DNA of 64,000 nucleotides from an uncultured virus (IMG/VR IMGVR_UViG_3300042308_001600) (taxonomy: Duplodnaviria > Heunggongvirae > Uroviricota > Caudoviricetes). The stretch covers positions 1 through 64,000 of IMG/VR virus record IMGVR_UViG_3300042308_001600. One strand, 5' to 3'. Positions 471 through 64,000 of the stretch are shown here, piece by piece. The notes below the pieces were generated by a model that saw only the letters and a list, made by a program, of their open reading frames with translations, made no database searches and was not told the origin of the DNA. Every line of letters starts with the position of its first letter. The first letter of the stretch is position 1. The translations under genes and the position numbers were made by a program.

Positions 471-1103
471 TTATTGCACGCCTGCCTGCGCCATCATGTG
501 CTGCGAGGCTGGGTCAGCTTGTTGGAGCATCGGTTGGAGCTGCTGCTCAAGTGCCTGCTGGGACAGCTGCTGCTGCATGAGGGCCTTCTGGTGGGCCTGC
601 TCCTGTTGGGCGAGCTGCTGCTGCATATCCTGCAGCATGTCGGGCATGACCTTCGACGAGTCGTCGATGGCCTTCTGCATCGCCTTGAGCTGCATTTCCT
701 GCTGCATTGATTTCTGCTCGAAGGCCTGCGTCTTCTGCGCCAGGGCCTCGAACATCTGCTGCTGTTGCTGCGCCGTCTGCGCCAGCTGCTCGATGCCCTG
801 CAGCATCTCACCAACCTGCTGCTGAAGCTGCTGCAGCAACTGCATGGGATCAACACCCTGCTGGGACGGATCACCCTGGGGAGGCGGGGCGCCCTGCTGG
901 GACGGATCACCTTGAGGTGGCGGCGGGGCGCCTTGGGGAGGTGGTGCGCCCTGGGGAGGCGGGGCACCCTGCTGAGACGGATCACCTGGAGGTGGTGCCC
1001 CTTGTGGTGGAGGCGCGGCACCTTGCTGAGGTGGTCCACCAATGAAGGCGAGCTTCTGGGAAAGCTGACGGAAGTCAGCAGCAAGTTGAGCGGGTGTTGT
1101 CAT
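471..1103 (-). CDS. Gln/Pro-rich repeat and coiled-coil protein, probably virion-associated
   Basis: QGAPPP and GDPSQQG repeats then a Gln-rich heptad region; ATGA overlap with upstream gene. Confidence 0.75.
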   Translation of the reverse strand: MTTPAQLAADFRQLSQKLAFIGGPPQQGAAPPPQGAPPPGDPSQQGAPPPQGAPPPQGAPPPPQGDPSQQGAPPPQGDPSQQGVDPMQLLQQLQQQVGEMLQGIEQLAQTAQQQQQMFEALAQKTQAFEQKSMQQEMQLKAMQKAIDDSSKVMPDMLQDMQQQLAQQEQAHQKALMQQQLSQQALEQQLQPMLQQADPASQHMMAQAGVQ

Positions 1104-3100
1104 GAGGCAGGAGTGAGAGGGGTTATGGAGGGCTTGGCGGGGGCGGCGTGCTCGAATGCGACCTGCGGACGCCCCGGGCCAATTGGCATCTTGATCTTCG
1201 GCTTTGCGAGCCCACCCTGAGGTTCAAGGCCGGTGGGGGTGTGCATGATCGCACTGGCGAACTTGGAACACTGGAGCGCGAAGTGGAGGGCACCAGATTT
1301 GACTGGCGGCAGGACTGCTCGATAAGCATCAATGAGCGCATTTGTTGTCCTGTACTGCTCAGGTTTCACTTCTGGGAATTGCTTCTTCAGGTGATCCCAA
1401 TCACTCCCTGGCCAGTTGTTGAGGAGACGGAATTCCGTGTTACCTTGGTTCCTCAATATGTTCGCCGCATCCTGCTGTCCTTGTGTGGGAGGCATAGGGC
1501 CAGACTCCCAACCGAGTGTACCGCTGTCACTTGGTTTTAGCTTGGGAGCTGAAGCATTTGGGGGCGGCGTAGCGGCTTCCCATCCGAGTGAATCATCTAC
1601 CTTCGGTGTTGCTGGAGCAGCAGGCTTTGGAGTGACAACGGCTGGGGGTGATGCAGGCTTGGCCGCAGCTACTGGTGATGCAGGCTTGGCCGGAAGCTCC
1701 CGAATCAGCGGTCCCGACGTGTCCAGGTTAAGCAAGGAATTCGGATCATCCAAAGGAGAAACAGTATTACTCTGTTTCTTCAGAAGCTTCGGCTCTACTG
1801 GATTCGCTGCCCAGTCCTTGGTGGCCGCCGCGTCTGATTCAAATCCTGTCAGCTTTCTCCCTGAATGCGAAGGCTGTCCATGGACGTTCGCACCAAACGG
1901 GTCGCCTTCCCGCATCGCCGCTAATGCTGGATCATAACTACCTGGCCTGTTTGATGAAATAAATGTATTCCGAGATGGATCAAAGGTACTAGGAACCTTG
2001 AACTGCGGATTCACAGGCATTGACGTATAGGGCTCTGCGGCGGGCTGGCCTCCAGGTTTGCCTCCAGGTTTGCCTCCAGCCAACAACTGCTGTGGAGCAG
2101 GCACACGCGCGGGTAGGTTCAAAGAACCAAGATCATTGATGTACTGTTGGCGTCCTTCCGAGATGCCGATCGCGGGGTTCACGCGATCTGGATCCGTGAG
2201 GGACTGATAAGGCGAATCTCCAATACGGGAACCCGCCATGGTTTGGTTACGCAGGTTTGGCACATCCGGATAGGCCGGTCCACGTGGGTCTGCCATTGCA
2301 GGTCCTTTGAACAAGTACCCAGGGTTGGCCTTGTCGACCTCCGCGACAGCTTGTGTCTTGGCCGCCTCCTGCTGCTTCGCCACGATCGGTTCCAGATGGT
2401 CACGGAAGGCATTGGGGCCTGTGTAGGTCTTACCATCAATGACGGTCTTGCGGTCTGGGGCCGTGGCCCAGTTTGAGGGATTGTTGAATGTCACACTCCC
2501 AGTTCCGTACTGGGAGTTCAGGACACGCTTGTTGGGATCCCCACCTTTACGAAGGGAACTCTCTGGATCAATAGTGGCGCTGACATGTGTCCCTCCAGGA
2601 TTCCCTGGTGTCGGGCTGTACAGATCCGCACTGCCCATTTGCTGAACTGGTGTGCCCACTGTTCCTGGCGCACGGTCCGTGTAGGCCCGCCCACCCCAGC
2701 CTTTGTAAAAATTCGCGAGATCTGGTCGCGACATGGCCTTGAAATCCGCAGGGTCGCCAACCGGAACTGCCAGACCTCCGTTGCCCGGCTCCCAAGTGGA
2801 GACGTTGGGACGTGTGCCAGCATTACCTGCAAAAGCGGCGTTGCCAACCGGAGCCGAAGTGGGAGCACCGTTGTTTGGTGCGGTGGTAGTTGGCGTGGTG
2901 GTTGGCGTGGTGGTTGCGGTGGTAGTTGGCGTGGTGGTTGTCGTTGTCGTCGGCGCAGGAGCGGGCAGTCTTGTGACGATCTCATTGGGATCATCCGTGC
3001 CTGGTGTCACCACAGGACTTGGCATTCCCTTAGCCGGATCATAGCTTGCCGTGTTGTCGACAGTGGCAAGCTTCAGTAATGTACGTGGTAAAAAGGTCAT
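1100..3100 (-). CDS. Pro/Thr-rich low-complexity protein with KxA motifs, putative virion internal protein
   Basis: 666 aa; N-terminal LLKLA, Thr tract, GGKP and LGWE repeats, C-terminal KFA. Confidence 0.75.
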   Translation of the reverse strand: MTFLPRTLLKLATVDNTASYDPAKGMPSPVVTPGTDDPNEIVTRLPAPAPTTTTTTTPTTTATTTPTTTPTTTAPNNGAPTSAPVGNAAFAGNAGTRPNVSTWEPGNGGLAVPVGDPADFKAMSRPDLANFYKGWGGRAYTDRAPGTVGTPVQQMGSADLYSPTPGNPGGTHVSATIDPESSLRKGGDPNKRVLNSQYGTGSVTFNNPSNWATAPDRKTVIDGKTYTGPNAFRDHLEPIVAKQQEAAKTQAVAEVDKANPGYLFKGPAMADPRGPAYPDVPNLRNQTMAGSRIGDSPYQSLTDPDRVNPAIGISEGRQQYINDLGSLNLPARVPAPQQLLAGGKPGGKPGGQPAAEPYTSMPVNPQFKVPSTFDPSRNTFISSNRPGSYDPALAAMREGDPFGANVHGQPSHSGRKLTGFESDAAATKDWAANPVEPKLLKKQSNTVSPLDDPNSLLNLDTSGPLIRELPAKPASPVAAAKPASPPAVVTPKPAAPATPKVDDSLGWEAATPPPNASAPKLKPSDSGTLGWESGPMPPTQGQQDAANILRNQGNTEFRLLNNWPGSDWDHLKKQFPEVKPEQYRTTNALIDAYRAVLPPVKSGALHFALQCSKFASAIMHTPTGLEPQGGLAKPKIKMPIGPGRPQVAFEHAAPAKPSITPLTPAS

Positions 3101-3109
3101 GGGGTCAGG

Positions 3110-6100
3110 CTAGTCCGGAATTTCAATGTCGTCCTCCAACTTTACAGCGCCGCTCTGCATACCCGCAAGCGCTTCCTGTCCTGAAGCGAAGCTGTGCAGC
3201 TTCGTAGGCGGACGTTTGTTGGCATTCCAGATGCCTAAAATTTGCTCATGCTTAGGCACCGGGACCACGTCGTCCTGGTTCTTGATGGAGAACAGCATCT
3301 TGCTGGCCATCAACTTCTCCTTGGTCTCCTTGATGGATTCTGGCAGGACCGGCAGGGAGACGTTGATCTGGTCCCCGTCGAAGTCGGCGTTCTGACCGGC
3401 CGTGATATAGGGGTTGATGGCAATGTGCGGACCGTCGTGGATCCGGGCATACTGCCCGACGGCGTTGAACTTGTGCCAGGCTGGAGCGCGGGAAAGGATG
3501 AAGGGTGTGTCCTTCAGCTCAAGCTCCAGGGTGCGGCTGGCAAAGGCGTCACGGTCCTTCACGGCTTTGATGGTCTGGGCGGGACTCATGCCCATCATGG
3601 CCAGCCGCCGCTGTACCTTGGAACCGGCGAGCGTCCAGGCCATCTCACGGGGGATCGAGACTTCATCGAGGCCCAGGTCTGGATCGACCGTGATGACACT
3701 GCGGCCCACGTTGTCGATGGGCTTGGAAAGGAGCCGGCGTTGAACGAAGGAGTTACCACTGACGACGGCGGCACCGTTGCGGCGCACCACAAGCAGCCCG
3801 TTAGGTACAGCGACACAATAAATGTGACCGTTGTACTGCACATCCTGAACTGTCCCGTTCGACTCGGTTTGAACGAACCAGCGCCCAATGAGCACACCAT
3901 TGTACTTCTCAGCATGGTGCTCTGGATACAGATGCGGGTGCTCTTTTCTACGGCGGATACAAATACCAAGTTTGAAGCCTACTTCCATCAGGTCATCGAA
4001 CAGCTTTGGACTTGTGGTAATGAAAGCATGATGTGAATCTGTAAGAGCATCACGGAACCGGTAGTTGTCGGACGCGTTTGCACGCTTCTGCCATGGAACG
4101 CGCTTAGCGCCATCCCCCTTCAGGTAGGTGTCGAACAGCAACCCCAACAGGGTCTGATTCCAATCACGTGCTAGAGCAGGTATGCGCTTGAAATTGGAAC
4201 CTTTGCCGCAATGCTGTTCCAACCATGCAACCAACGGTCTACATCCCTTGATGCTCCAACCGTAACCGCTGAAGCGAGGCTCCTCCCGGTGCATGTTCAC
4301 TTTGGACACCTCTTGTACATTGCTGATGTCTCGGAACAAAGCGTCTAGTTCCAAGCAGTAATCGGGGTTTGCTTCGGTCTGCCAGATTGTAGCGATCGTA
4401 CCACATTCGTGTGTGCTTCCTTCTGAAATGTACCAACCGATAAAACGTGCAAACAGTTCAGCGGGCCAGTGGCGTGCACACTCTGGCAGTTCGACCGAGC
4501 CCTCCCAACCACCTGCGCCCACCATAGCGAAGTGACGTACTTTGTGCGCGACCAACTCGTCGGCCCGCATCGCATACCAACCAGTGCGCAAATTGTCGTC
4601 CGTCATCTTATTCTTCTTGTCGCGCTTTTTGGTCCACATCCGGTGATTGGGTGTGACCAAAAGGTCCATGCGCTTGCCTGTACGCCCACCAACTACGAAC
4701 CGCTTCATGGTACCGCTGTATTCTGAATCGATGTACTCCGTAGGGGTCTGCCATTCGAATGCCAGGGTCTTGGGATTTATGGTGGCCACCTGCGCCCCAC
4801 GCTCCAGTTCAGAGAACTTCACCCACCCTTGACCCCGCGTCAGGATTTCTGTGTCTGCAGAGTAGCAGTGCTTTGGCCCTTCGTTGAGGATCTGGTCCAA
4901 GTAGCCCGAGGGTCCACGCTCCTTGAGCTTCGGGGACACGGGGTCTCCGTAACCGTACAGGGCCCTCGTGGCATTCAGGAGATTCATGCGCGTCAGGGCT
5001 GCGCCGCCTTCCCCCAGGGTCGAGAGCGTCTCGTCATGGATAGCCCGGTGCTTGAAGAGGTCCTGGTACAGTTCATTGGCGTCACCGGGAATGTAGGTGG
5101 TGCCCAGGAACGAGAAGGGCCTGAAGGCCGGTGGCAGTACTGGCACCCGCTTGATCATGAGCTCCTCGGGCTTGATGTCATTACGGCGCAGACCCTCAAG
5201 GGCATTGAGCATCTTGACCCCACGGTCACGCTTGGTGATCTTCCCGGAGGCAATGTCAGCACGGGCTTGCTTCTCGAGGTCATCGAGGTTCAGGGCCTTG
5301 AGGGCTTCCAGGATTCCATGCGGGCCAGTACGGCCTGCGATCTGTACTGAGGCGGACTTCTCTTGGGCTTGGTCCCAGGAAGCCTGCTTCTTACGTTCAG
5401 CATCGACATCGAAGCTGTGACCGCAGTCACGACACTCCGCGTTCGAGTGGGTCTTGAAGAACTCGAAGTCCTTGGGCTTGCCACCGCATTCGGGACATTG
5501 ACCCCGACGTACCCACAGGTTCCGGAGCTTGTCCCCGGCGGCCTGCTTCTCCTCTCCTCGCCCTGGAACGGAAACGTTCTCCGGCGAGGTGGAGGCCTTC
5601 TTGGCCCGCCGTGCAGCCAGGATAGCCCGCTTCTTCTCCCGCTGCTGGTACAGGATCTCCTTCATGGATTCCCCGCCGAAGCCCTGGTAGTTCTCAATTC
5701 TCTCGTCGGACATCTCCGGGTCATCCACGATCCCTTGGCAGTTGGGACACAGCTGGTCAGCGTCCATGGGCTCAATGCCTTCCCGCTCGGCCTGTTCGAA
5801 GTCAGGACGCGGGTAGCCCTTCTCGGTAAACTTGTGGTCACAGTGTGGGCAGTGGTCATCCTGAACTTCCACCATCCTGGTCTTCCGAACCATCTCGGCC
5901 GCGACCTTGGTCAGAAGCTCGCCCTTGTCTGGCACGACCCCGATGGCCCGGTCATCGTAGAAGCGGGTTATCGTTGGATCCTTGATGTTCGTGATCTTCA
6001 TCTTCTCTAACCCGTGATCATCGAGCCACTTCCGCACCGTGCTGTGCATCTTGGGATCCTTGGAACTGGCGCGGGCCGTGAAGCACAAGGTGCGCTTCCC

Positions 6101-6241
6101 ATCCCGGATGGCCTTCAGGGCCAGGTCCAAGATTGCCTCCACGGGTTCCCCTACCGAGTACGGATTGAAGGGCTCCTGGCGTAGGGCCAGTGTTCCATCA
6201 AGGTCAAAGGCGATTACATCTGGTCTAGTCTTGTCGGCCAT
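3110..6241 (-). CDS. rpoC: DNA-directed RNA polymerase beta-prime catalytic fragment with intein, fused to N-terminal HAD phosphatase and Zn-ribbons
   Basis: VPVLPPAFRP, RRLLSKPIDNVGRSVI, RAPAWHK and NADFDGD motifs; N-terminal FDLDGT...FTAR...K...DD HAD motifs; CxxC pairs. Confidence 0.92.
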   Translation of the reverse strand: MADKTRPDVIAFDLDGTLALRQEPFNPYSVGEPVEAILDLALKAIRDGKRTLCFTARASSKDPKMHSTVRKWLDDHGLEKMKITNIKDPTITRFYDDRAIGVVPDKGELLTKVAAEMVRKTRMVEVQDDHCPHCDHKFTEKGYPRPDFEQAEREGIEPMDADQLCPNCQGIVDDPEMSDERIENYQGFGGESMKEILYQQREKKRAILAARRAKKASTSPENVSVPGRGEEKQAAGDKLRNLWVRRGQCPECGGKPKDFEFFKTHSNAECRDCGHSFDVDAERKKQASWDQAQEKSASVQIAGRTGPHGILEALKALNLDDLEKQARADIASGKITKRDRGVKMLNALEGLRRNDIKPEELMIKRVPVLPPAFRPFSFLGTTYIPGDANELYQDLFKHRAIHDETLSTLGEGGAALTRMNLLNATRALYGYGDPVSPKLKERGPSGYLDQILNEGPKHCYSADTEILTRGQGWVKFSELERGAQVATINPKTLAFEWQTPTEYIDSEYSGTMKRFVVGGRTGKRMDLLVTPNHRMWTKKRDKKNKMTDDNLRTGWYAMRADELVAHKVRHFAMVGAGGWEGSVELPECARHWPAELFARFIGWYISEGSTHECGTIATIWQTEANPDYCLELDALFRDISNVQEVSKVNMHREEPRFSGYGWSIKGCRPLVAWLEQHCGKGSNFKRIPALARDWNQTLLGLLFDTYLKGDGAKRVPWQKRANASDNYRFRDALTDSHHAFITTSPKLFDDLMEVGFKLGICIRRRKEHPHLYPEHHAEKYNGVLIGRWFVQTESNGTVQDVQYNGHIYCVAVPNGLLVVRRNGAAVVSGNSFVQRRLLSKPIDNVGRSVITVDPDLGLDEVSIPREMAWTLAGSKVQRRLAMMGMSPAQTIKAVKDRDAFASRTLELELKDTPFILSRAPAWHKFNAVGQYARIHDGPHIAINPYITAGQNADFDGDQINVSLPVLPESIKETKEKLMASKMLFSIKNQDDVVPVPKHEQILGIWNANKRPPTKLHSFASGQEALAGMQSGAVKLEDDIEIPD
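3752..4867 (-). mobile_element. intein (372 aa) with LAGLIDADG-type homing endonuclease
   Basis: starts CYSADTEILT, block B VTPNHRMW, endonuclease-like motifs FIGWYISEG and YLKGDG, ends YCVAVPNG...VVSGN followed by Ser; removal restores GPKH-SFVQRRLLSK. Confidence 0.9.
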
Positions 6242-6246
6242 ACCCT

Positions 6247-6275
6247 AGTGTGGCATGGACGTGACCGGGGAGCAA
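6247..6275 (-). promoter_or_regulatory. sigma70-like promoter, probably leaderless, for the RNAP gene
   Basis: TTGCTC-17 bp-CACACT ending 5 nt before ATG. Confidence 0.5.
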
Positions 6276-6277
6276 GT

Positions 6278-7285
6278 TTACTTCATGGGAGCAGCAGCGC
6301 CATGGGGCGTACGGGCGGGTAACAACTGTTTCAATTTTTCCACCCCACCACGCAAGTACTCCTGAATTCTAAACCATTCACTACCTAATCTTGACTCAAA
6401 ACCCTGCCGCCCCATAAACTGCTCCATCCCCTGCGGGATACGTGAGGCCCACGATCCCTTGTACACAGGGGACGTGATATTACGCAGTATGTGCTGCCAT
6501 TGTTTATTTGCCGGTACGCGAAGCAGTTTACCGTCATGTACAAATGCCCAATTGCGGAAATTGTTGATACCCGATTGTAGTTTGGTCTCATACCAAGGTA
6601 CCCAGCTGTCAGCCGGCTCCAGTCCCTTGCCGGTCACCAACTCTCTTGGGTCAGCTAGCTTGAGTTGGTGGCGCGCCCATAAATTCTTGTTCGTGCGGGC
6701 TAAGCCGAATGCATCGCCACGCAAATTCGGTGGTTGACGCAGCGCGGAAACAACACTGTCCCAAGTACGCCCCATTTGCTTGGTGACGTCCATGTCCTGT
6801 AAAAAGTCAGCGCTGTAGCGATTAAGTGGGCTTGCCTGGTATTCAGCAACCAACGCGGGAGCTGAACGATTCGGTCCGTACTTGGCGGCCAGAGCAGGGG
6901 ACGGAGTTCCATGGACCCAGCTACCTGCTTCAATGTTGGGAGTTAAGGTTCTCATTCCACGAAACAGTGAACCCGGAGTTTGCTTATTCTGAAGCATGTT
7001 TGCGCCGAGTGTCTCTAGCGGTGTCACGTCGTCCAATTTGTTTACCTGCTTCAGCAGCCCTGACATCTCTTGCGCTGGTGCGTAAGGGTTCGAGCTCATA
7101 TGTGACTTGGCTATTTGCAGCTGAGTCAGGCGGGTCGGATCTCCCCACTTGGGTGGATGTATATTAGACGTTATTGCCGGTGTTGGTGGGCGGCGCATGA
7201 AAGCCGCCAACGCCTTTGCAGTACGCCACCTAGCCAATCCCTGCTTCACCATGTATGAACTGACTTGGATGTGCGTCGGTTTCAT
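6278..7285 (-). CDS. putative virion protein with possible ADP-ribosyltransferase-like domain
   Basis: N-terminal HIQVSSYMVKQG motif; LFRG...HGTPS..AAKYG...YE arrangement resembles the ART fold. Confidence 0.6.
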   Translation of the reverse strand: MKPTHIQVSSYMVKQGLARWRTAKALAAFMRRPPTPAITSNIHPPKWGDPTRLTQLQIAKSHMSSNPYAPAQEMSGLLKQVNKLDDVTPLETLGANMLQNKQTPGSLFRGMRTLTPNIEAGSWVHGTPSPALAAKYGPNRSAPALVAEYQASPLNRYSADFLQDMDVTKQMGRTWDSVVSALRQPPNLRGDAFGLARTNKNLWARHQLKLADPRELVTGKGLEPADSWVPWYETKLQSGINNFRNWAFVHDGKLLRVPANKQWQHILRNITSPVYKGSWASRIPQGMEQFMGRQGFESRLGSEWFRIQEYLRGGVEKLKQLLPARTPHGAAAPMK

Positions 7286-11334: not shown

Positions 11335-12024
11335 CTACCATTCCCGTACAGCTTGCTGGGCAGAGCGGAACAGATCCCCGTAGGCGCTAGGTGGCGCGTG
11401 TGGGATATTAGGCAGTACACTTCGGACACCCTGGACAGCAGGTGCTACAGCAGGTGCATAGGCGTGCCGAAGCCAAGTCCCTGGGCCCGTTGCCGCTGGA
11501 GCGCGACCAAGATTGTTCCACCAGTCAGCCACCCCGTTCCGACCAGCAATGTAAGTAGCGTTGCCGAGCAGCGCACGCTGCCCAGCTGGAACTGTTTCGG
11601 GGAGACCCATGATGGCTGTCCTGAGTGTGGTCCAGATTGGGGACTCGGCCAGGTCCTGTGTGTACTGTTTCAACGGTTGAAGTTTCTCATGCGGTGGGAG
11701 CAATTGGTTGGCATTCAGGGCCAAGTCCTTGACAGCTTCACGACCCTGCACAACACTAGCACCCAGACCATAGACGCCCGCACCTTGTGCTATCCGCTTC
11801 GGTACGTTCCACCAACCCTTGACTTGCGGGTTAAAACCGAGCTTCAGTACACGACGCGCGGCAGTACCGATCGAAGGTGCGAAGGTTTCACCTGCCGGGA
11901 CTCCTGCCCCGAAGCGAGCGCCTTGCTGGAGCGTCTTACCTGTTTGGGTCAAGACCTTCGAGACTCCATTTAGTGCCTTACCTAGAAGAGCTGTTGAGAC
12001 CTTGATGTGTGAGACTTTGCTCAT
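11335..12024 (-). CDS. Gly/Ala-rich protein with HIKVST motif
   Basis: start refined to ATG 12024 (ATGA overlap); MSKVSHIKVSTALLGKA. Confidence 0.7.
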   Translation of the reverse strand: MSKVSHIKVSTALLGKALNGVSKVLTQTGKTLQQGARFGAGVPAGETFAPSIGTAARRVLKLGFNPQVKGWWNVPKRIAQGAGVYGLGASVVQGREAVKDLALNANQLLPPHEKLQPLKQYTQDLAESPIWTTLRTAIMGLPETVPAGQRALLGNATYIAGRNGVADWWNNLGRAPAATGPGTWLRHAYAPAVAPAVQGVRSVLPNIPHAPPSAYGDLFRSAQQAVREW

Positions 12025-14726
12025 GGCGCCAGTTTCGGTATCCATTTATTGATCGCAGCGGCGTTCAAAGCATCTTCGATGGCGGTGTCGGCACCGTTAC
12101 CGCTCAGCATCCGCCAGTAGGTCCTCAAACCATCTGATAGCGGCACGGTGCCAATGGCACGCCCCATTGGGGAAGCATTCCAGCCCTGGCGTGGTGCGTC
12201 GGCGGCAGCCAGGACACCAAGCAACCCACCTGCTACCCCACCCCAACCAACTCCAGCACCAACAGAAGGTCGACGTTTCTTATCGCGCACACCGTGCCCG
12301 CGCAGCATCTGGATCAATCCACCAGCGGCTCCACCAAGTGCGGCACCGCCAAGCGGCATCGCAACGGCACGTTCGACTGTGGGAACAGCCCATGCTGCAT
12401 GCACAGCCGCTCTAGGATCTGAGCTTTGCGAAAGTACAGCAAGTTCCTTGAGAGCCGCCACAGTATCTGGTGTGGCGGCTTCGGAGTTTACGCCGAACAG
12501 TTTCAGAGCGTCTGGTAATGAAGTCTCCAGATTGGCCTGCTTGGTCACCTTGTTGTACAGATCTGCTGCCGTACCTTTTGCTGTTTGCCAACCACCCTGG
12601 AGACGGCGAAGCGTATCCGGGAGAGTGTTCTGGTCGGCCGATCCGAGTCCTGCACCTGCAGCGCCGCCGAGCAGTGTGAGCAGGATACGATTGCGCTTCT
12701 GTCTTTTGGCCTCCTCGGCAGAGACCCGCTTCTCGTCCTCGAAGTACTGGCCTACCATATTGCCCAGGAATGCACCACCAATGCCCCCAACATACGGGCG
12801 GCCTCCAGCAATCAACTTAGAGCCTGAGTCCATCAGCTTGCCGCCCAGCTCCTTGGAAGAATTCTCCAACTTCTCGAACGGCTCCTTGAAGTTCTTGGCA
12901 ATACTGTTCTCAGCCTTGTCCATCTTGGAATCGAGCTTGGTCGCGGTGCTGGTGAGTTTGCCTGTACCGGCTCGCAGGTTGTCAAGAGTACCAAACAGTT
13001 TATCACCACCAAGCAGCAGGGATGTCTTGCCGATGAGGCCTGTACTGGCACCCATTAAGGCCTTCGGGTTGTACCCAATGTTCCGGAGACCAGTAGCAGG
13101 ATCCGTGAACACCTTTTTGAGCATACGTTGCCGCGCGATTGGGTTGCCTGCCAACAGACCTAAGGCCGTATTGGCAATCAGGTTGTTCTTCTGCATGTCC
13201 GGTCCCATGTCCGTGAAACTGTTTTCAGCGAGACCAAGCCCCGCACCAGCTCCACCACCGATCAGCGTCTGTGCTACCTGATTACCAACACCCCCCTGAA
13301 ACGCGCCAGGAATAGGACCAGTGCCGATCATCCGCCGAACGTCAGCCAGATTCACGGCATCACGGATGCGAGGGAACTCAGCCATGAGCTCCGGGTGCTG
13401 CAGGGCAACGCGCTCGTACTCCCCTGGTCGCAGGTTGCCTCCGCCAGCTAGGAAGCTTCGGAGCTTCTCCGCGGCCGGCGCTGCAGTAGCCCCCTCAGTC
13501 GCACCGACCGCACCTGGTGTGCGGCTGAACATGCCCTTGAGAGCAGGAAGGACCCCCTTGAGATTGATGGCTTGCTTGGTCCAGGGGGCGGGTGTGAGGC
13601 TAGTGTGCATGATGGAAATATCTGAGCTTGGTAGAATGTTGACCAGCGAATTTGTGGCCTGCTTGTGGAAATCCTGGAACTGCTGCCCGGCCAGTGGCTT
13701 GGTCATGTCCCCTTTCTTTAGCCATGACTTGAACTGGGGTAGCGTCATGGGTGTGATGTCCCGGAAGCCGGTCCAGCCTTCCGAGTAGTTCTTGATGTAC
13801 AGCTCCTTCGCTTCAGCAACAGTACGGCAGCCTACGACGCACTTGTGTTCATCGAAGGTCTTGGTCTTCTGCTTGTTCTGGTCCACCACAAACACGATCT
13901 CGCTCTCGGGATGTGGACCCATGAAGACATCCATCTGGTCACCGGGTTCTGCGCTGGTGGTGCCCTTGATGTACCCGTAGGCATTCTTGAGCTTCACGGA
14001 CCACTCCGTCCCATCCTTATCGACCCCACGCCGCACTGCACCAGGGGCAGACTCGATCGTGATACCGAGACCCTTCCAGGAGAAGTGACCCTTCTGGTAC
14101 TGACCGTGCTCGATGGCCTTCAGGTCAGGGATTGTGACCTGCTTGTACGCAGCTGCGATACGGCTCCGAAGATCCTGGTCGTTGCTGGCATCCTTGTGCA
14201 TCTCCCGAAACATGGTCGACAGTGCTTTACCACCCAGCGTGGCCACCGCGATGGGGGCAGTCCGGAGTGCACTGTTCCAGCGGTGAGGATCCTGGTCCCG
14301 GTGCCACTGCGAAGGTTTGAAATTGGGACCGAACCCACGGGTCAAGAGGCGTCCTAGTGCTTCAGCACCCAGACCTGTCCCGGTCCCGACTAGCCCACCG
14401 GCTGCCGAGAGCTGTGCCAGCCTACCAATGTCGGCATTATTCCGGTACATCTTGGGAGCCATGATGGCAGCCAGCACCCACGGCACACTCAAACCGAGCC
14501 CACCACCTAGCATGGCAGATGTACTGAAAGGTTGGTCCTGGTAGTGCCGCACCCTTGCTTCATCCACCAAAGCCTCCCGGTGCCTCTTGGATTCAGGACG
14601 GGCCGTCGCGGGGGCCTTCTCGAGCGGAGCAGGGTCCACGGCATCCTGGATCTTGCCTGCCGCCCGTTCGAGAACCGGGAGGGCACTCGAGGACTTGACG
14701 ATGGGTGGGGCGAGCAGGGACAACAT
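12021..14726 (-). CDS. KxA-punctuated polyprotein with inorganic-pyrophosphatase-like (InPase) domain and glycine-zipper segments
   Basis: KGH...ITIE..G..R.G...W...YGYI.GT....GD.MDVF...VVDQ...FDEHK...G...A...Y..NY..GW signature at ~13666-14187; several GGxxGxxxG helices. Confidence 0.8.
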   Translation of the reverse strand: MLSLLAPPIVKSSSALPVLERAAGKIQDAVDPAPLEKAPATARPESKRHREALVDEARVRHYQDQPFSTSAMLGGGLGLSVPWVLAAIMAPKMYRNNADIGRLAQLSAAGGLVGTGTGLGAEALGRLLTRGFGPNFKPSQWHRDQDPHRWNSALRTAPIAVATLGGKALSTMFREMHKDASNDQDLRSRIAAAYKQVTIPDLKAIEHGQYQKGHFSWKGLGITIESAPGAVRRGVDKDGTEWSVKLKNAYGYIKGTTSAEPGDQMDVFMGPHPESEIVFVVDQNKQKTKTFDEHKCVVGCRTVAEAKELYIKNYSEGWTGFRDITPMTLPQFKSWLKKGDMTKPLAGQQFQDFHKQATNSLVNILPSSDISIMHTSLTPAPWTKQAINLKGVLPALKGMFSRTPGAVGATEGATAAPAAEKLRSFLAGGGNLRPGEYERVALQHPELMAEFPRIRDAVNLADVRRMIGTGPIPGAFQGGVGNQVAQTLIGGGAGAGLGLAENSFTDMGPDMQKNNLIANTALGLLAGNPIARQRMLKKVFTDPATGLRNIGYNPKALMGASTGLIGKTSLLLGGDKLFGTLDNLRAGTGKLTSTATKLDSKMDKAENSIAKNFKEPFEKLENSSKELGGKLMDSGSKLIAGGRPYVGGIGGAFLGNMVGQYFEDEKRVSAEEAKRQKRNRILLTLLGGAAGAGLGSADQNTLPDTLRRLQGGWQTAKGTAADLYNKVTKQANLETSLPDALKLFGVNSEAATPDTVAALKELAVLSQSSDPRAAVHAAWAVPTVERAVAMPLGGAALGGAAGGLIQMLRGHGVRDKKRRPSVGAGVGWGGVAGGLLGVLAAADAPRQGWNASPMGRAIGTVPLSDGLRTYWRMLSGNGADTAIEDALNAAAINKWIPKLAP

Positions 14727-15949: not shown

Positions 15950-16716
15950 GCCGAGAGCCCGATCTGGGCGTCAATGACACCATGCAGAGATCTCGTCCGT
16001 TTCGGCAGATCCTGCATGTTCGTGTCTTTCAGGACCTCAGTGTGGGCGTTGAAAAGACTCCAAGCAGTACGGGGCGCGAAAGCCTCGTGGCTGGGATGGC
16101 GCCACTCCTGCAAGACATGCTTCACATCCTGTCCACAAATCACCTTGGCATCCAGAGCCCGGATGATCGTGTCATGGGCGAGCGTGTCTGTGATCTCCCG
16201 GTCCTTGTACTGTTGGATACGATTGTCCATACCGATCCAGCTGGCATTCAGGTCGCCAGCAGCACGGGTAATCAGACGGGGCAGGTCCAGCGCAGCGTGC
16301 CGGGTGTGCTTGCGGGCAATCATGATCTCGCCCGAGAAGGCAAGGTTGTCGCAAGTGAAGACCCGAGACCCAAAGGCCAGGCCGGCCGAGAAGGCACGGT
16401 CATTGGCGTTCCGAAGAGCCACCATCCACTCGTAGTCCTGATGGACCTGCGCGCGCGGGTTCCGTACCGCCATGATCCCGAAGTACCGGTCCCCATCACG
16501 CGTGAGAGCGTGTACTTCATCCACGATCTCGATCCCGTCTGTGGTCAGACAGCGGCGGGTGTTCTCGACCAGTTCATGGTGCGGCAGCGGGTACCAGGTC
16601 TTGGTGTTCTCCGGCGTCTTGACGTTCCTAAGTTCCTGTACATCAACCTTGACGGCCCCGCAGTGGAGGATCAATGGGAGCGGCTTGCGCTCGGGTGCTT
16701 TAATGAGGGTGTCCAT
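15946..16716 (-). CDS. DUF932-like protein
   Basis: YPLPHHELV...RYFG...LRNANDR...G.RVFTCDNL...H...TAWSLFNAHTE pattern. Confidence 0.8.
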   Translation of the reverse strand: MDTLIKAPERKPLPLILHCGAVKVDVQELRNVKTPENTKTWYPLPHHELVENTRRCLTTDGIEIVDEVHALTRDGDRYFGIMAVRNPRAQVHQDYEWMVALRNANDRAFSAGLAFGSRVFTCDNLAFSGEIMIARKHTRHAALDLPRLITRAAGDLNASWIGMDNRIQQYKDREITDTLAHDTIIRALDAKVICGQDVKHVLQEWRHPSHEAFAPRTAWSLFNAHTEVLKDTNMQDLPKRTRSLHGVIDAQIGLSA

Positions 16717-16719
16717 ATT

Positions 16720-17028
16720 TCAACAGTTGCTGACTCTAAACCGTGATGTGTCTTTCTGGAGTGTGTCACACCAGAGCTGGCGCTGTGCGGCACGCACCCG
16801 CTGACGATCGACGTACTTTTCCAACACTTTGAAACCGTGGCGCATATCCACCGCATGCTCCCACCAACCTGCTGTGATGTACACGTGGTCGTCCGGCGTG
16901 CCTGGGCACGCCGCGCGTGCTACCACGACGGCGTGCCAGGTATTGCGCATATGCCGAACGTCGCTGCTGTCCGCTGAGGAGCAGACGCTGTCGCCGATTT
17001 CAAACTTGGGTTTCTTCGTCTTTGCCAT
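16720..17028 (-). CDS. hypothetical protein (SH3/KOW-like start)
   Basis: KPKFEIGDSV N-terminus. Confidence 0.55.
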   Translation of the reverse strand: MAKTKKPKFEIGDSVCSSADSSDVRHMRNTWHAVVVARAACPGTPDDHVYITAGWWEHAVDMRHGFKVLEKYVDRQRVRAAQRQLWCDTLQKDTSRFRVSNC

Positions 17029-17212
17029 TGTCGTCTTCAGTTGGTTCGCCCTCATCATAGCTGTAGTCACGGGCGATCCTGGCGCACAGCTCCAGCAGTT
17101 TGTCCCGGGCCTCGCTCTCTTCCTTGGTTTCCGTACGTTGATTCATATGCTCCTCACAGTCTCGCAGGTCCACGAGAGTGTTCTGGAATCGGCAGTATGA
17201 CATGTTAGCCAT
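17000..17212 (-). CDS. conserved phage-type hypothetical protein
   Basis: MANMSYCRFQNTLxDLxDC motif recalled from phage genomes. Confidence 0.7.
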   Translation of the reverse strand: MANMSYCRFQNTLVDLRDCEEHMNQRTETKEESEARDKLLELCARIARDYSYDEGEPTEDDNGKDEETQV

Positions 17213-17495
17213 TGTTGCGTTCCAGTTCTCTGACCTCCTGTGGGGTTGCACGGCGCAGGGGCTTGCTCTCATCCAGCACCTTGCAGAGCCCCTCGAAGGT
17301 CATGATTTTCGCGAACCGGCTCACTTGGAGAAGCTCATGTACTACATTGTGGCGGCGACACAAGAAGATCACGACATTGTCCCAAGCGTCCTCGATAGTA
17401 CGATCACGCGTCTCCCACTCCAAGGTGTTCATGGTGTTGGTGACCGTGTCCTGGAACAGAAATGTGAGCTGTTTTGGTGACCGCATGGTGTTCAT
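17205..17495 (-). CDS. hypothetical protein
   Basis: ATGA overlap. Confidence 0.6.
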   Translation of the reverse strand: MNTMRSPKQLTFLFQDTVTNTMNTLEWETRDRTIEDAWDNVVIFLCRRHNVVHELLQVSRFAKIMTFEGLCKVLDESKPLRRATPQEVRELERNNG

Positions 17496-17680
17496 GGTGC
17501 CTTCAACCAGGAAAGGAACTCCACGAGAATTGAAACGAGGAACACCATCTGGGCGATCTCATGCACCAGGTTAGACTGTACCTTGTTCCGCATGACCTGT
17601 ACTTGAAAGCTCATCCAGCCTGCATACGCCGCGACGTCCCTGAGAACGACGAGCCCTGTTGAAAATTCGGGATGTGTCAT
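17492..17680 (-). CDS. small hypothetical protein
   Basis: ATGA overlaps at both ends. Confidence 0.55.
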   Translation of the reverse strand: MTHPEFSTGLVVLRDVAAYAGWMSFQVQVMRNKVQSNLVHEIAQMVFLVSILVEFLSWLKAP

Positions 17681-18291
17681 AATTCATGCATGAGCACCGC
17701 TTGGGTGTTCACAAACTGCTTGAGAGTCTTGGGACGGAATCCCATGGCCCTTGACTTACAGGTCTTATCCGTCAGCTGGAAGCGCGCCGGGCAGAACGTC
17801 TTGTCGAAGATCGAGCCTGACTTGCTGGAAACCTGGACACGCTGGACATACCGTCCCGTGACTGCGTAGGTCCACTTGGCCAGGATGCTGTACTGGAGGC
17901 CCTGACTGTGCTGGATGAAACCACCCTTGATCTCCAGCAGACTCTTCCCTTTGTCATCCAGTACTGTGAAGGGTGCTGGCCTGAGCCCTTTCGCGGTTGT
18001 CGGGTGCAGACCCGGACGCTCGTAGAAGATCCCACAGGCGCGGGGATGCCAGGTGACCTCGAAGTCCGGTGTGTACTTGGCGTCCTGCATGAGGATCCTG
18101 GACACTGGTTTGTCTGGTCCCTTCTTCATCGGCTTCACGTACCAGACTGGTACATTCTCGGACAACGTGATCGTCTCGGCCCTGCTCCACTTGGTGATGT
18201 AGTCAGCTTCCATGAGTTCCTCCAGGTACCAGATAAAGTACTCTTCCTCCTTGGAGTCTGTGGTGTTGTCGGTCGTTTTGGCTTTGGTCAT
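17677..18291 (-). CDS. PD-(D/E)xK nuclease (DUF1064-like)
   Basis: DSKEE...YTPDF...LEIKG motifs. Confidence 0.75.
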   Translation of the reverse strand: MTKAKTTDNTTDSKEEEYFIWYLEELMEADYITKWSRAETITLSENVPVWYVKPMKKGPDKPVSRILMQDAKYTPDFEVTWHPRACGIFYERPGLHPTTAKGLRPAPFTVLDDKGKSLLEIKGGFIQHSQGLQYSILAKWTYAVTGRYVQRVQVSSKSGSIFDKTFCPARFQLTDKTCKSRAMGFRPKTLKQFVNTQAVLMHEL

Positions 18292-18527
18292 GGGGTCAAC
18301 TTTAAGCTCTGCAACCATTTGTCCAGCCGCAAGAACTCACCTGCAATAGGGAGTCCGTAGATGCGTCCGAACTCCTGCCGTTCCGTTTCATGTAGGACAA
18401 GTACATCCGGGCAATCAGGACCGACCCAGCCCTGATCGTTGCTCCAAAAGAGCTTGAGGGGTTTCCTCGTGACGGGATCTGGAACCCAATCACTGTGCTC
18501 AATAACGTACAGATCTGCGAAGGTCAT
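18288..18527 (-). CDS. hypothetical protein
   Basis: FWSNxxGW motif; ATGA overlap. Confidence 0.6.
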   Translation of the reverse strand: MTFADLYVIEHSDWVPDPVTRKPLKLFWSNDQGWVGPDCPDVLVLHETERQEFGRIYGLPIAGEFLRLDKWLQSLKLTP

Positions 18528-18865
18528 TCGCCGTCCTCCTCATCGCAGACCAGCTTGGGGTCACCCTCAAGAAGATCCAGCGTTTCCTGGAGCGTCTCCT
18601 TCAGATGCTCAATCGCATACCGGCATGCGACCGGGAGTGCGTCAGTGACGTCCAGGCGGAGGCTGTGCCCGTGAATGTTCATGTGCATGCAGGTCACGTA
18701 CCACCCTGGCGGCCGATGATACGGATTGGCATGCGGCGGCGCATACCGCAGCTTGATAAGCAGCGGTCCCGACTTGGTACACCAACCATTCACTCCGGAC
18801 TGTTGCCAGGTGAACCCAGCAGCATTGATGCTCGTGTTTACTGGCAGGTCACTCATCGGTTTCAT
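18524..18865 (-). CDS. hypothetical protein
   Basis: part of the overlapping array. Confidence 0.55.
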   Translation of the reverse strand: MKPMSDLPVNTSINAAGFTWQQSGVNGWCTKSGPLLIKLRYAPPHANPYHRPPGWYVTCMHMNIHGHSLRLDVTDALPVACRYAIEHLKETLQETLDLLEGDPKLVCDEEDGE

Positions 18866-19046
18866 CGAAGTCGCCGCAGCCTACCAACCTGCGTCTCGCG
18901 CGTGCTTCATTGGGGCAGCTGTTCTCGTGACAGGGAACACCCTGAATCACCATCGAGGCGCAGCGCGAACAACCCACCCGTACTGCACCATCCTCAGTCT
19001 TGTAAGACCGGTCAAACCCTAGGACTTCAAGTTGTTCGAGTGTCAT
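18849..19046 (-). CDS. small Zn-binding protein
   Basis: CSRC...GVPCHE..CPN. Confidence 0.7.
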   Translation of the reverse strand: MTLEQLEVLGFDRSYKTEDGAVRVGCSRCASMVIQGVPCHENSCPNEARARRRLVGCGDFDETDE

Positions 19047-19057
19047 GTTCCCAGGTT

Positions 19058-19396
19058 TTACTTCAGGGGCAGCTGCCCTTTGAGATGGGCCTGCACGGCT
19101 TTCAGGTCACCCTCCAGGCGGGTGACCGTCGCTGACAGTGCCTCGAATTCCTGGCGGGTGACCTTTCCGGTCTTGGCCTTGTCTTCCTTGACCGCCGCGT
19201 GCTTACGGATTCCCAGGGCGTTCCTGAGACCCATGACGTTGGAGGCGGTGACGACGAATCCCACACCTTCCGAGATCGCCGCAGCCGCAGCGGCGTCGGT
19301 CGTGTTTTGCAGGAACGTTTCTTTATCGGCGCGCGCGTCCACCCATGCCTTGACGGCTAGGGTTCGATTCAAAGGTAACATGTTTTTCGTAGCCAT
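19058..19396 (-). CDS. hypothetical protein with C-terminal coiled coil
   Basis: start refined to MATKN. Confidence 0.65.
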   Translation of the reverse strand: MATKNMLPLNRTLAVKAWVDARADKETFLQNTTDAAAAAAISEGVGFVVTASNVMGLRNALGIRKHAAVKEDKAKTGKVTRQEFEALSATVTRLEGDLKAVQAHLKGQLPLK

Positions 19397-22281: not shown

Positions 22282-22639
22282 CCAGTCCTAGCACGGTGTC
22301 ACCATTGGCAACCTCGTACTGCCAGTCCCGTACCAGGGACTGGGTAGCATCTTCATCCGGTGTCACAGGCATGACTTCCTCAGGCCAGGGTTCGCAGTAC
22401 TCAGCCGGGATGTTCAGCCCGCAGTGGGTCAGGTCATGGGCCAGAATGGAGTTTGGGTATCCCGTCACCAGCTTTGCAAACTCATTAGTACCCTGCAGGA
22501 ACCGGTACGCGTCATTGTTCCCGCCGGCTGTCTTGTTCGCGACCGTGGAACCAACCGGAATGAGTAAATCCCACCCATTGTAGTTCACCCGGTACTCCCG
22601 GATGGTCTTTGCTATCTTGTACTTTGTACTGTTGATCAT
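22238..22639 (-). CDS. hypothetical protein
   Basis: C-terminal DWQYEVANGDT.LG..EW motif; ATGA overlap. Confidence 0.6.
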   Translation of the reverse strand: MINSTKYKIAKTIREYRVNYNGWDLLIPVGSTVANKTAGGNNDAYRFLQGTNEFAKLVTGYPNSILAHDLTHCGLNIPAEYCEPWPEEVMPVTPDEDATQSLVRDWQYEVANGDTVLGLVEWRKHKQESEDRE

Positions 22640-24402: not shown

Positions 24403-24820
24403 GCACTGGCGGGTCAACCAAGATTTCTTTCAGGATGGCTTCATAGTCAGGAGGACAACCACGACGTTTACCTGTACTGCTCTCGCGATGCTCACGCAGG
24501 GGTAGTCCACAGTTGTAGCAACCTGGATGCCGTTGCCCATCTTCGACAGACCTGTACACAGGACCCTGATGTTCGTCACCAGCGTCCAATAGCCAGTAAC
24601 GCCCACGCGGTTCCACGTATGGTTTCAGCTCGATGTTCAACACCGACGGGTCAAAGACCCACTGGTTGTCCGCTGCGTCCTGTAGAACCGTACGCAGACA
24701 AGTAACATGGCTATTCTTACCTGGAACCACCTCGGAGCTGAGAATCTTGAACGGCAGAACTGGAACAACCTCACTCATCATCGCCTTCGGGATCCGCGTC
24801 ATCGAAGTCCAGGTCTTCAC
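24395..24820 (-). CDS. hypothetical protein
   Basis: part of the array; CxxC...H near C-terminus. Confidence 0.55.
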   Translation of the reverse strand: MKTWTSMTRIPKAMMSEVVPVLPFKILSSEVVPGKNSHVTCLRTVLQDAADNQWVFDPSVLNIELKPYVEPRGRYWLLDAGDEHQGPVYRSVEDGQRHPGCYNCGLPLREHRESSTGKRRGCPPDYEAILKEILVDPPVHE

Positions 24821-63199: not shown

Positions 63200-63219
63200 T
63201 AAGTGCTGATTTTACTGCG

Positions 63220-63860: not shown

Positions 63861-63889
63861 AATGTTTCACAGCGGCCGAGTACCGGCAA
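63861..63889 (-). promoter_or_regulatory. sigma70-like promoter
   Basis: TTGCCG-17 bp-AACATT ending 11 nt before ATG 63849. Confidence 0.4.
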
Positions 63890-64000
63890 GAACTTCCTCG
63901 AAGTCCTTGCGAGTGATCCCAAGCAGCTGGCGAATGGTGTCCTCTGCGGCTGGGTTCGGCATAGGCTCCGGGAGGTCAATGTAACCCCAGTTCTTGTTGG

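Follow-up and report, generated by a model that had tools for sequence, protein, structure and literature searches.

Why would a phage make a catalytic piece of its RNA polymerase (RNAP) behind an unrelated phosphatase and two zinc ribbons, and does this enzyme-bearing leader stay on the finished polymerase? The question is raised by a single gene in a stretch of 64,000 nucleotides (nt) from an uncultured virus of the Caudoviricetes (positions 1 to 64,000 of IMG/VR record IMGVR_UViG_3300042308_001600), which we call the window. A prediction made from the letters of the window (the original prediction) had read the gene as a virion RNAP beta-prime subunit whose removable leader has gathered passenger enzymes. 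The 121,077-bp record, of which the window forms the first 64 kb, has a CheckV completeness of 59%, and a second IMG/VR record of 200,255 bp (98% complete) was used for genome-wide counts. Our analysis indicates that the gene encodes an intein-containing precursor, P0001, and we consider it probable, if far from certain, that this precursor is a virion-packaged RNAP subunit made as a polyprotein, the cargo modules of which are cut off in the capsid. Removal of the leader is suggested by a conserved K-x-A-[S/A] junction together with a protease of the gp21 fold encoded in the same genome. Splicing of the intein is suggested by intact splice-junction residues and by the existence of intein-free alleles, and packaging in the virion by analogy with the particle proteomics of the cultured Salmonella phage Arash and by domains typical of injected polyvalent proteins.

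The elements of the gene and the other polymerase gene reaching into the window are listed below by window coordinates, with amino acid (aa) positions of P0001 and the basis of each assignment.

3110..6241, minus strand: whole precursor gene (open reading frame (ORF) list and translation; identical copy on the 200,255-bp record)
5909..6241, minus strand: HAD phosphatase domain, PNKP type, capless, aa 1-111 (motifs, PHROG, fold match)
5897..5908, minus strand: border motif 1, KVAA, aa 112-115, at the start of a low-confidence linker (motif; predicted local distance difference test, pLDDT)
5603..5896, minus strand: Zn-ribbon module 1, aa 116-213, with CPHC at 131, CPNC at 165 and a long helix at 192-217 (motifs and model)
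5591..5602, minus strand: border motif 2, KKAS, aa 214-217 (motif; kept in homologue P0005)
5537..5548, minus strand: border motif 3, KQAA, aa 232-235, within a low-confidence linker (motif; pLDDT)
5390..5536, minus strand: Zn-ribbon module 2, aa 236-284, with CPEC at 249 and CRDC at 270 (motifs and model)
5378..5389, minus strand: border motif 4, KQAS, aa 285-288 (motif)
5348..5359, minus strand: junction motif 5, KSAS, aa 295-298, 10 aa before the sequence TGP; predicted maturation site (conservation)
4868..5350, minus strand: first part of the beta-prime N core (N-extein), aa 298-458 (alignment to solved beta-prime chains)
3752..4867, minus strand: intein with LAGLIDADG homing endonuclease, aa 459-830 (splice residues, PHROG, tblastn, precise gap)
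3113..3751, minus strand: second part of the beta-prime N core (C-extein) with the catalytic loop, aa 831-1043 (Pfam RNA_pol_Rpb1_2)
3371..3391, minus strand: NADFDGD metal-binding motif, aa 951-957 (motif)
63867..64000, minus strand: last 134 nt of the window, end of the beta C-piece gene with a beta-prime N-terminal segment on its tail (Rpb2_6; PDB hits)

The HAD domain and the polymerase piece share one intact reading frame

The minus-strand ORF is open for 1043 codons, followed by a stop, and begins with an ATG at 6241 that has an AGGG-type ribosome-binding site a few bases upstream. All the elements that had been read from the sequence were present in its translation in the order given (HAD domain, KVA, CPHC/CPNC, KKA/KQA, CPEC/CRDC, KQA/KSA, beta-prime, NADFDGD), and the KQA/KSA pair, placed at about 5352-5390 by the original prediction, was found as KQAS and KSAS at nt 5348-5389.

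The window derives from a metagenome assembly and its record is a fragment, as would be compatible with an assembly or gene-calling artefact, in which a missed stop, a frameshift or a chimeric contig had joined the HAD domain to the RNAP sequence. An identical gene, however, is present on the second record. Furthermore, Logan contigs from two lake-water runs (X2 and X3) covered positions 3000-6400 in all 30 bins and bridged the HAD/beta-prime junction without an indel or joint; single contigs, at 5229-6087 and 5132-6087, span the interior of the HAD domain, the Zn ribbons and the start of beta-prime. Fifteen of the 18 listed contig differences lie at third codon positions of the P0001 frame, as calculated from the coordinates, and HAD and the beta-prime core occur within one protein in 27 of 65 homologues drawn from several databases. 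An artefact is thus exceedingly improbable, and the danger of a missed stop or misassembly, to which the original prediction had pointed, did not materialise. The samples of X2 and X3 differ from the possible source sample; the three runs are lake-water metagenomes from 2024 and may belong to one campaign, and runs X4 and X5 covered only parts of the stretch. A search of viral contigs for related loci returned only the identical copy, and the relatives described below came from a protein search.

The lake-water runs also contained two allele 'bubbles' at window positions 5042-5263, with eight differences in X2 and X4 and six in X3, all at third codon positions of P0001, and a further 3-nt change at 5261-5263. 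The allele differences at 5042-5263 are strain variation under purifying selection.

P0001 carries the N-terminal catalytic piece of a split beta-prime

Behind its leader, P0001 matched the Pfam family RNA_pol_Rpb1_2 (PF00623) with 62.3 bits (cut-off 25.3; E = 8.7e-17) and solved bacterial beta-prime chains at E = 2.8e-29, together with a weak match to Rpb1_1. Homology begins at aa ~289-304, which corresponds to beta-prime residues ~166-192 (query 304-397 aligns to residues 192-286 of 8i23_D), and the C-extein matches residues 338-512 and onward of E. coli-type beta-prime. The stop codon follows 86 aa after NADFDGD, in line with the early end noted by the original prediction, and the bridge-helix/trigger-loop family PF04998 had no match anywhere in the 121-kb record. 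The same C-terminal end is shared by most homologues that lack a match-interrupting second intein. Since the canonical beta-prime N-terminus (the residues before ~190, with the zinc-binding domain) is not in the P0001 polypeptide either, the gene represents a split-gene piece and not a whole beta-prime. The true beta-prime N core comprises aa ~298-458 and 831-1043, about 374 aa.

The missing N-terminal segment was located on another gene. The beta C piece (record positions 63867-65960, minus strand; 697 aa; Pfam Rpb2_6, E = 1.4e-58) runs past the canonical end of beta, and its last ~90 aa correspond to the N-terminal segment of beta-prime. When its last 130 aa were compared with the PDB, 28 of 28 hits were beta-prime chains. 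Query 43-85 matched residues ~9-51 of beta-prime; individually, the hits were weak (E 0.027-0.89). This tail contains no cysteines and the PDB alignment ends before the zinc-binding position; judged by sequence, the zinc-binding part of the beta-prime N-terminus appears to be absent from it. In the homologue P0074, a contiguous fusion, the beta-prime N-terminal segment passes straight into the core. Together, the beta C tail and P0074 place the gene boundary inside beta-prime, a few residues before the conserved TGP, and the P0001 leader is attached exactly at this boundary.

The remaining subunits were predicted to lie outside the window, and so they do, save for the 134 nt of the beta C-piece gene listed above. 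The beta N piece is found at record positions 89448-90098 (Rpb2_3), and the beta-prime C piece (996 aa, Rpb1_5) only on the 200-kb record, at 159844-162834 on the plus strand, ~18 kb downstream of the P0001 gene. The 200-kb record gave one hit each for Rpb2_6, Rpb1_2 and Rpb1_5, and a search of it with the C-extein at E up to 10 found only the gene itself. By these profiles the genome appears to hold one RNAP set, which is of the bacterial type (a second might have escaped them if very divergent), and P0001 would contribute the double-psi beta-barrel with NADFDGD to the only multisubunit RNAP of this phage. The phage is not phiKZ-like.

The beta-prime C piece carries an intein of its own (Hint/Hom_end_hint from aa ~313 and LAGLIDADG_3 at 554-638), and a GIY-YIG homing-endonuclease ORF lies just upstream of its gene.

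An intein interrupts the polymerase sequence

The original prediction had treated the beta-prime sequence as running without interruption through NADFDGD. The homology stood, the continuity did not, as an insert of 372 aa with a LAGLIDADG endonuclease (aa 459-830) separates the two parts of the core. Its landmarks are those of an intein, with Cys459 as the first residue, a TPNH block at 530-533, two LAGLIDADG-like motifs, Asn830 as the last residue and Ser831 in the +1 position. The penultimate residue of inteins is usually His; that of P0001 is Gly. Pfam Hint_2 scored below its cut-off (18.2 versus 28.4 bits; E = 0.0034). The PHROG hits of the insert led to intein-bearing families, and tblastn matched aa 459-855 to inteins in mycobacteriophage genes.

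A precise delimitation came from the homologue P0005, which has no intein and in which the exteins are contiguous at 533|534 with flanks that are 85-96% identical. Fifty-five other core homologues lack the intein as well. An intein at the same site was found in 9 of 65 core-bearing homologues (36-49% identity), and about a dozen other homologues contain a different intein just behind the NADFDGD region. The annotation of the gene should therefore read intein-containing precursor, and not beta-prime of 1043 aa.

A third intein was noticed on the second record, in a 1049-aa ORF at 16122-19271 (minus strand) that matches the terminase large subunit (phrog_675, E = 1.2e-10; Intein_splicing, E = 1.7e-12, with LAGLIDADG_3).

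The leader consists of a PNKP-type phosphatase and two Zn-ribbon modules

The leader, comprising the first ~297 aa, contains a HAD phosphatase of the PNKP type followed by two Zn-ribbon modules. An AlphaFold (AF2) model of aa 1-300, built from a 21-sequence alignment (mean pLDDT 82.6), consists of three folded units and two low-confidence linkers (aa 113-126 and 222-235; pLDDT <50). The HAD domain is modelled with pLDDT >90 and carries FDLDGT at aa 12-17, FTAR at 54-57, K87 and DD at 96-97. Across the 21 aligned sequences D13, D15, T55, K87 and D96 are invariant, and T17 and D97 are conserved in at least 90%.

At the sequence level, phrog_415 (polynucleotide kinase) was the sole significant match to this domain (E = 4.2e-6), and Pfam HAD_PNKP remained below its cut-off on P0001 (13.7 versus 27.6 bits, E = 0.072), the best homologues reaching 20.4 bits. 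Fold searches with the 300-aa leader, which were informative for aa 1-111 alone, retrieved the T4 Pnkp 3'-phosphatase (5uj0_B; Z 10.9, 101 aa, root-mean-square deviation (rmsd) 2.6), Pnkp1 from an RNA-repair complex (4xrp_A; Z 10.6) and T4 polynucleotide kinase (PNK; 1ltq_A; Z 10.4), and Foldseek returned a PNKP-type match with a probability of 1.00. On the strength of the model we class the domain as a HAD with a PNKP-like fold, and not as a member of the Pfam family HAD_PNKP. It shares the DxDxT, T/S, K and DD motifs with T4 PNK and with Pnkp1 of the Pnkp1/Rnl/Hen1 complex. Unlike these proteins, P0001 has neither a kinase domain nor a ligase partner, and identity to them is ~21%.

Each Zn module is built on a four-Cys ribbon, and module 2 gave a weak hit to Pfam DZR (E = 0.015). 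We considered whether the ribbons are the displaced zinc-binding domain of beta-prime and rejected this idea. The leader did not align to any normal RNAP region (such an alignment would have refuted the original prediction), and it is the beta C piece that carries the N-terminal segment of beta-prime, on its tail. P0074, which passes from that segment straight into the core, contradicts the idea too, as do the Zn modules themselves, which differ between proteins in how many there are, in their order and in their spacing to the core, and which most homologues lack. A weak hint in its favour came from P0030, in which the Pfam Rpb1_1 envelope (669-891) overlaps the end of a Zn module.

The leader is an optional and variable add-on

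A protein search with aa 1-458 returned 71 proteins with lengths of 573-1826 aa, one of them identical to the query. One homologue had been binned with a Fluviibacter MAG, which offers no more than a lead. The core was present in 65 of the other 70 and absent from five. Fifteen of the core-bearing homologues lack a leader, their first residue lying 1-28 aa (median 8) upstream of TGP, and the remaining 50 carry one that can reach ~1090 aa. By BLAST, the 65 core-bearing proteins contain the HAD domain in 27 cases, Zn module 1 in 16 and Zn module 2, at a varying distance from the core, in 17.

A Pfam scan of 57 homologues (13 mostly leaderless ones were left out) revealed other contents: InPase in five, 2H/Acb1-like domains in three, NUDIX in three, LysM in two, GNAT in one, and the beta C piece (Rpb2_6) in five. 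The expectation that leaders would differ between orthologues was thus borne out. In all five coreless homologues HAD and Zn module 1 are joined to InPase with no RNAP part, so that these modules move between RNAP leaders and other large proteins. Below 573 aa, six proteins match the leader, three of which are stand-alone HAD-like proteins of 118-155 aa with 34-35% identity. A swap is visible in P0005, where a different, Gly/Ala/Pro-rich segment replaces Zn module 1 between motifs 1 and 2; the flanks are 92-96% identical, and KKAS is kept at the same border. These sequence comparisons show the leader to be an optional, variable add-on.

In one homologue, P0063 (1237 aa), the core is leaderless and is extended at its C-terminus by a LigD 3'-phosphoesterase and the OB domain of a DNA ligase; these form a module for healing and sealing ends, at the opposite end of the subunit.

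A K-x-A-[S/A] motif marks the module borders

All five copies of K-x-A-[S/A] in P0001 lie in the leader, at module borders after each folded unit, and two of them fall at or within the low-pLDDT linkers, of which the model has just two. Five copies within a 300-aa leader were reached in 2 of 200,000 shuffles. At the junction with the core, K295 and A297 are at least 90% conserved in the 21-sequence leader alignment. When the 50 leader-bearing homologues were inspected, 40 had the motif no more than 30 aa upstream of TGP, with a K-to-T distance of 5-18 (mode 10), and the other ten mostly had near variants such as KVAG, KAAP, KQGS or KSGS. The 37 distinct junction sites have K in 37/37 and A in 37/37, and the next residue is S in 26 of them and A in 11. 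Outside the junction, leaders contain the motif at 0.40 per 100 aa (106 in 26,343 aa), about ten times the density in cores and inteins, which is 0.038 per 100 aa (10 in 26,259 aa). Cleavage at the junction would create a new N-terminus ~7 aa before TGP in P0001, that is, in the region where leaderless genes begin. Among the beta-to-beta-prime fusions, four of five (P0035, P0066, P0071 and P0072) contain the motif at the same junction.

The motif is also enriched in the genome as a whole, with 102 copies observed in the 258 ORFs of the 200-kb record against 41.6 expected. The excess sits in about eight ORFs, five of which form a block immediately behind the gene of the beta-prime C piece, at 163.5-172.7 kb.

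Could the leader remain attached and work in cis as an accessory activity, with K-x-A-[S/A] serving as linker only? The HAD domain, or InPase, NUDIX or 2H in relatives, would then clear pyrophosphate or trim RNA or DNA ends during transcription. In keeping with this idea, every enzyme found in the leaders works on phosphate esters, either of nucleotides or of nucleic-acid ends, and fusion to the polymerase would hold these enzymes at the transcript; Iyer et al. propose that InPase may clear pyrophosphate and so aid early transcription (PMC5512222). A passive linker, however, would not preserve an unchanging K and A at a constant spacing to the core in 40 of 50 homologues, nor would it account for the same motif in unrelated proteins beside the prohead protease and at the borders of the protease domain itself (see below). 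In addition, the same enzymes and a Zn module occur in proteins without an RNAP part, and the 15 leaderless forms do without them. We regard a permanently attached leader as unlikely.

Seven ORFs contain six or seven copies of the motif each (Poisson p 1e-8 to 2e-5). The motif-rich ORFs lie on the second record in the 163501-172714 block and at 62340-63944 and 12659-13696. Apart from the protease, at 169892-171490, none of them matches a known family, and we consider them candidate portal, scaffold or ejection proteins that would be cut into pieces. The downstream neighbour of P0001, a Pro/Thr/Ala-rich protein of 666 aa at window positions 1100-3100 (minus strand) without a family, contains KPAS/KPAA three times within a low-complexity stretch, as well as KFAS at aa 613.

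A candidate prohead protease with a gp21 fold

Within the motif-rich block, the second record encodes at 169892-171490 a protein of 498 aa, P0077, with more than 130 homologues on large phage contigs. The initial hints to its function were weak: a PHROG match to 'head maturation protease' (E = 0.0065) and atlas neighbours among Peptidase_S78 and S77 at 0.85-0.86. Its structural model (pLDDT 84.6) has a large helical C-terminal half, and aa 10-219 match T4 gp21 (5jbl_A; VIA Z 12.5, 146 aa, rmsd 2.9), followed by the proteases of varicella-zoster virus (Z 7.4) and human cytomegalovirus (Z 5.5). Foldseek matched the gp21 fold with E = 9.8e-4 and a probability of 1.00. In 53 sequences, H108 and S159 are invariant. 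Copies of K-x-A-[S/A/G] on either side of the protease domain are kept as well, site 42 in 47/53 and site 237 in 49/53; site 237 lies within a disordered linker. From their position and conservation, sites 42 and 237 would look like self-trimming sites. Sites 177 and 354 lie inside folded regions and are found in 18/53 sequences, and such poorly conserved copies in folded regions imply that not every copy of the motif is a cut site.

P0077 thus resembles T4 gp21 and the herpesvirus protease assemblin in its fold, its invariant His/Ser pair and the motif copies flanking its domain. It differs from T4 gp21 in its length of 498 aa with the large helical C-terminal half, and its specificity is read from motif statistics only. 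T4- and phiKZ-type proteases cut after Glu; for P0077 we predict K-x-A-[S/A]. Herpesvirus assemblin cuts between Ala and Ser, and by analogy we propose the same position for P0077.

Might the leader be cut by another peptidase in the cytoplasm? In that scenario a matrixin-like protein or a host enzyme would remove it, the RNAP would not be virion-borne and would act in the middle or late phase, and early genes would be read by host RNAP. A matrixin-like ORF is indeed present in the record, and polyvalent proteins are thought to process themselves by metallopeptidase domains (PMC5512222). The P0001 gene lies outside a recognised head module, and cultured relatives with a bacterial-type RNAP, such as Arash, encode a sigma factor too. 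Against this, the motif excess centres on the block of the gp21-fold protease, the best-kept copies flank the domain of that protease, InPase and 2H partners are typical of packaged proteins, and the Arash homologue is abundant in particles. Cytoplasmic removal of the leader is, in our estimation, quite improbable.

A 296-aa ORF after a putative portal-sized gene was also considered as the protease and rejected, as it had only GNAT-like clusters at 0.81, which is chance level. Most ORFs in the structural half of the 200-kb record match no family, and capsid, portal and scaffold ORFs were not recognised there. Many P0077 homologues are themselves intein-bearing, with forms of ~900 aa that contain Hint/LAGLIDADG families.

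Comparison with known virion polymerases and polyvalent proteins

As in the virion RNAPs of phiKZ, 201phi2-1 and SPN3US, the enzyme considered here is a split multisubunit RNAP. The closest parallel is the beta subunit of the 201phi2-1 virion RNAP, from which a 275-aa N-terminal propeptide is removed by the prohead protease; the SPN3US homologue is not processed, and SPN3US Gp245 auto-cleaves (PMC5694885). Propeptides of giant phages can hold several cut sites, the SPN3US motif being AXE (PMC10052503). P0001 resembles the 201phi2-1 subunit in its long N-terminal extension, the gp21-type removal of which was measured there and is predicted here. Several features set the systems apart. The phiKZ-like phages possess two very divergent RNAP sets, whereas here a single set near bacterial beta-prime (E 1e-29) was found; their cleavage motif is A/S/G-x-E in contrast to K-x-A-[S/A]; the processed subunit is beta in 201phi2-1 and the beta-prime N piece here; and the part of the published account of 201phi2-1 available to us mentions no enzymes in the propeptide, unlike the enzyme modules of the present leader.

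With their strings of unrelated enzyme domains (InPase, 2H, GNAT), the leaders resemble the polyvalent proteins of Iyer, Burroughs, Anand, de Souza and Aravind (2017). These are predicted to be packaged, injected, active in the first minutes and processed into separate units, and one class includes the N4-like virion RNA polymerase (PMC5512222). P0001, with HAD, two Zn ribbons and an RNAP piece, contains the two or more unrelated domains that define this class of proteins. The polymerase of the polyvalent class is, however, of the single-subunit N4 type and not one piece of a multisubunit enzyme, and its processing is ascribed to an in-built zincin metallopeptidase domain, which is frequent in polyvalent proteins but not universal. 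In P0001 no peptidase family was found (Pfam, E up to 0.1) and no in-built zincin; a separate prohead serine protease is proposed instead. HAD as a domain name was not found in the portion of PMC5512222 that was searched.

The nearest cultured relatives of the core are Salmonella phage Arash, Vibrio phage D69 and Rhizobium phage RHph_Y65, with 32-34% identity over the C-extein. Arash gp206 and D69 VPHD69_0261 (~1525 aa) end at the same point after the catalytic loop as P0001, but their 'leader' is the beta subunit itself (Rpb2_3 and Rpb2_6 by Pfam in Arash gp206), and RHph_Y65 has an unsplit beta-prime of 1127 aa. All three are without HAD, Zn-ribbon modules or a same-site intein. By number of spectra, Arash gp206 and gp216 both rank in the top five proteins of the particles (PMC10585845).

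A proposed model for maturation and delivery

In the model that we consider probable, the 1043-aa precursor would mature in two ways, by intein splicing and by removal of the leader. The 372-aa intein would splice out, joining His458 to Ser831, and the precursor would enter the prohead together with the other RNAP pieces. Inside the prohead, P0077 would cut K-x-A-[S/A] in the flexible linkers, probably between Ala and Ser/Ala, to yield the HAD domain (aa 1-114), two Zn modules, two short peptides and a core of ~374 aa, the N-terminus of which would then lie approximately where leaderless homologues start. RNAP and freed cargo would enter the cell with the DNA, and the RNAP would transcribe early genes. 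The HAD enzyme, most likely a 3'-phosphate (end-healing) or nucleotide phosphatase, would support early infection or counter host RNA- or nucleotide-based defence.

A number of observations weigh against this model. Cleavage, packaging, the protease responsible and the HAD substrate are all inferred for this phage. The motif has only three constrained positions, its strict form is missing at 10 of 50 junctions, and some copies lie in folded, poorly conserved regions, as at sites 177 and 354 of P0077; the position of the cut between Ala and Ser follows the specificity of assemblin by analogy. Since 15 of 65 homologues are leaderless, the leader is not required for RNAP function, nor for packaging if the subunit is packaged. 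The particle list of Arash includes many enzymes with little likelihood of a structural role, such as ribonucleotide reductases, ligases and primase (PMC10585845), so that presence in it is weak evidence of packaging, and no strict K-x-A-[S/A] was seen near the junction of the Arash protein with its beta-subunit leader. The P0001 gene is separated from the gene of the beta-prime C piece by ~18 kb and from that of the protease by ~28 kb. It is flanked by unannotated genes and not by a recognised head module, its neighbours at 1100-3100 and 6278-7285 having no Pfam or PHROG family. Finally, another peptidase is present, the matrixin-like ORF at record positions 69590-70150.

A wider version of the model can be formulated for the clade, which we put forward tentatively and regard as doubtful. 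The injected beta-prime N piece of this widespread, uncultured group of ~200-kb freshwater phages might be a chassis for swappable enzymes (a PNKP-type phosphatase, a 2H/Acb1-like phosphodiesterase, NUDIX, InPase, GNAT). The prohead protease would release them at K-x-A|S, which has the Ala|Ser pair cut by assemblin, and as the phage enters they would heal the ends of RNA or degrade immune signals made of nucleotides. The split of the polymerase gene might be a former protease site. The fusions keep the motif where the genes of this phage are split; if the split is a former protease site, proteolytic splitting would therefore have preceded gene fission.

Other genes in the records

Beside the polymerase genes, a polyvalent-type InPase (PF18823, E = 3e-46, aa 205-337) is present in a 901-aa ORF at window positions 12021-14726 (minus strand). 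Its sequence includes hydrophobic stretches that are long and rich in Gly/Ala, and a single KDAS just before the InPase domain. Its PHROG matches are minor head, virion and DarB-like proteins, and it has no HAD or Zn module in common with the P0001 leader; it is probably another packaged or ejected protein. At record positions 101194-104619 (minus strand), a 1141-aa DNA polymerase A carries an N-terminal domain of the uracil-DNA-glycosylase superfamily as well as a 3'-5' exonuclease domain. The following genes were also noted.

22636-24417, minus strand: 593-aa GHKL-ATPase protein
29350-29847, minus strand: 165-aa protein with a phosphopantetheine-attachment (carrier protein) domain
38733-40772, minus strand: 679-aa protein ending in a C-5 cytosine methylase motif region
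58262-60316, minus strand: full NAD-dependent DNA ligase

Significance

Each ingredient has a precedent: phage RNAPs that are split or carried in the virion, prohead proteases that remove propeptides, polyvalent proteins, and inteins in phages. Their combination is new. A multisubunit RNAP of the bacterial type contributes one of its pieces as the C-terminal anchor for a polyprotein with varying enzymes, K-x-A-[S/A] recurs throughout the family as a border code and is linked to gp21-fold proteases of a new branch, and the gene split inside beta-prime coincides with this code. In the literature on phage RNAPs, prohead proteases and polyvalent proteins, as far as listings and main-text passages were covered, we found neither a multisubunit-RNAP subunit with a HAD, InPase or NUDIX leader nor a K-x-A-S prohead-protease motif.

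If the model is true, early enzymes would be loaded into the capsid on the phage's own multisubunit RNAP subunit and freed by the capsid protease, a form of delivery so far described for single-subunit N4-type enzymes and for non-enzymatic propeptides. The shift of the boundary, by which the beta gene carries the beta-prime N-terminus and the motif lies at the split, is relevant to the origin of split RNAP genes. The predicted K-x-A|S/A specificity would provide a rule by which the mature virion proteome of an uncultured phage group could be read from sequence, and the cargo (3'-phosphatase, 2H/Acb1-like, NUDIX, InPase) would comprise candidate counter-defence or RNA-repair enzymes that act before phage gene expression.

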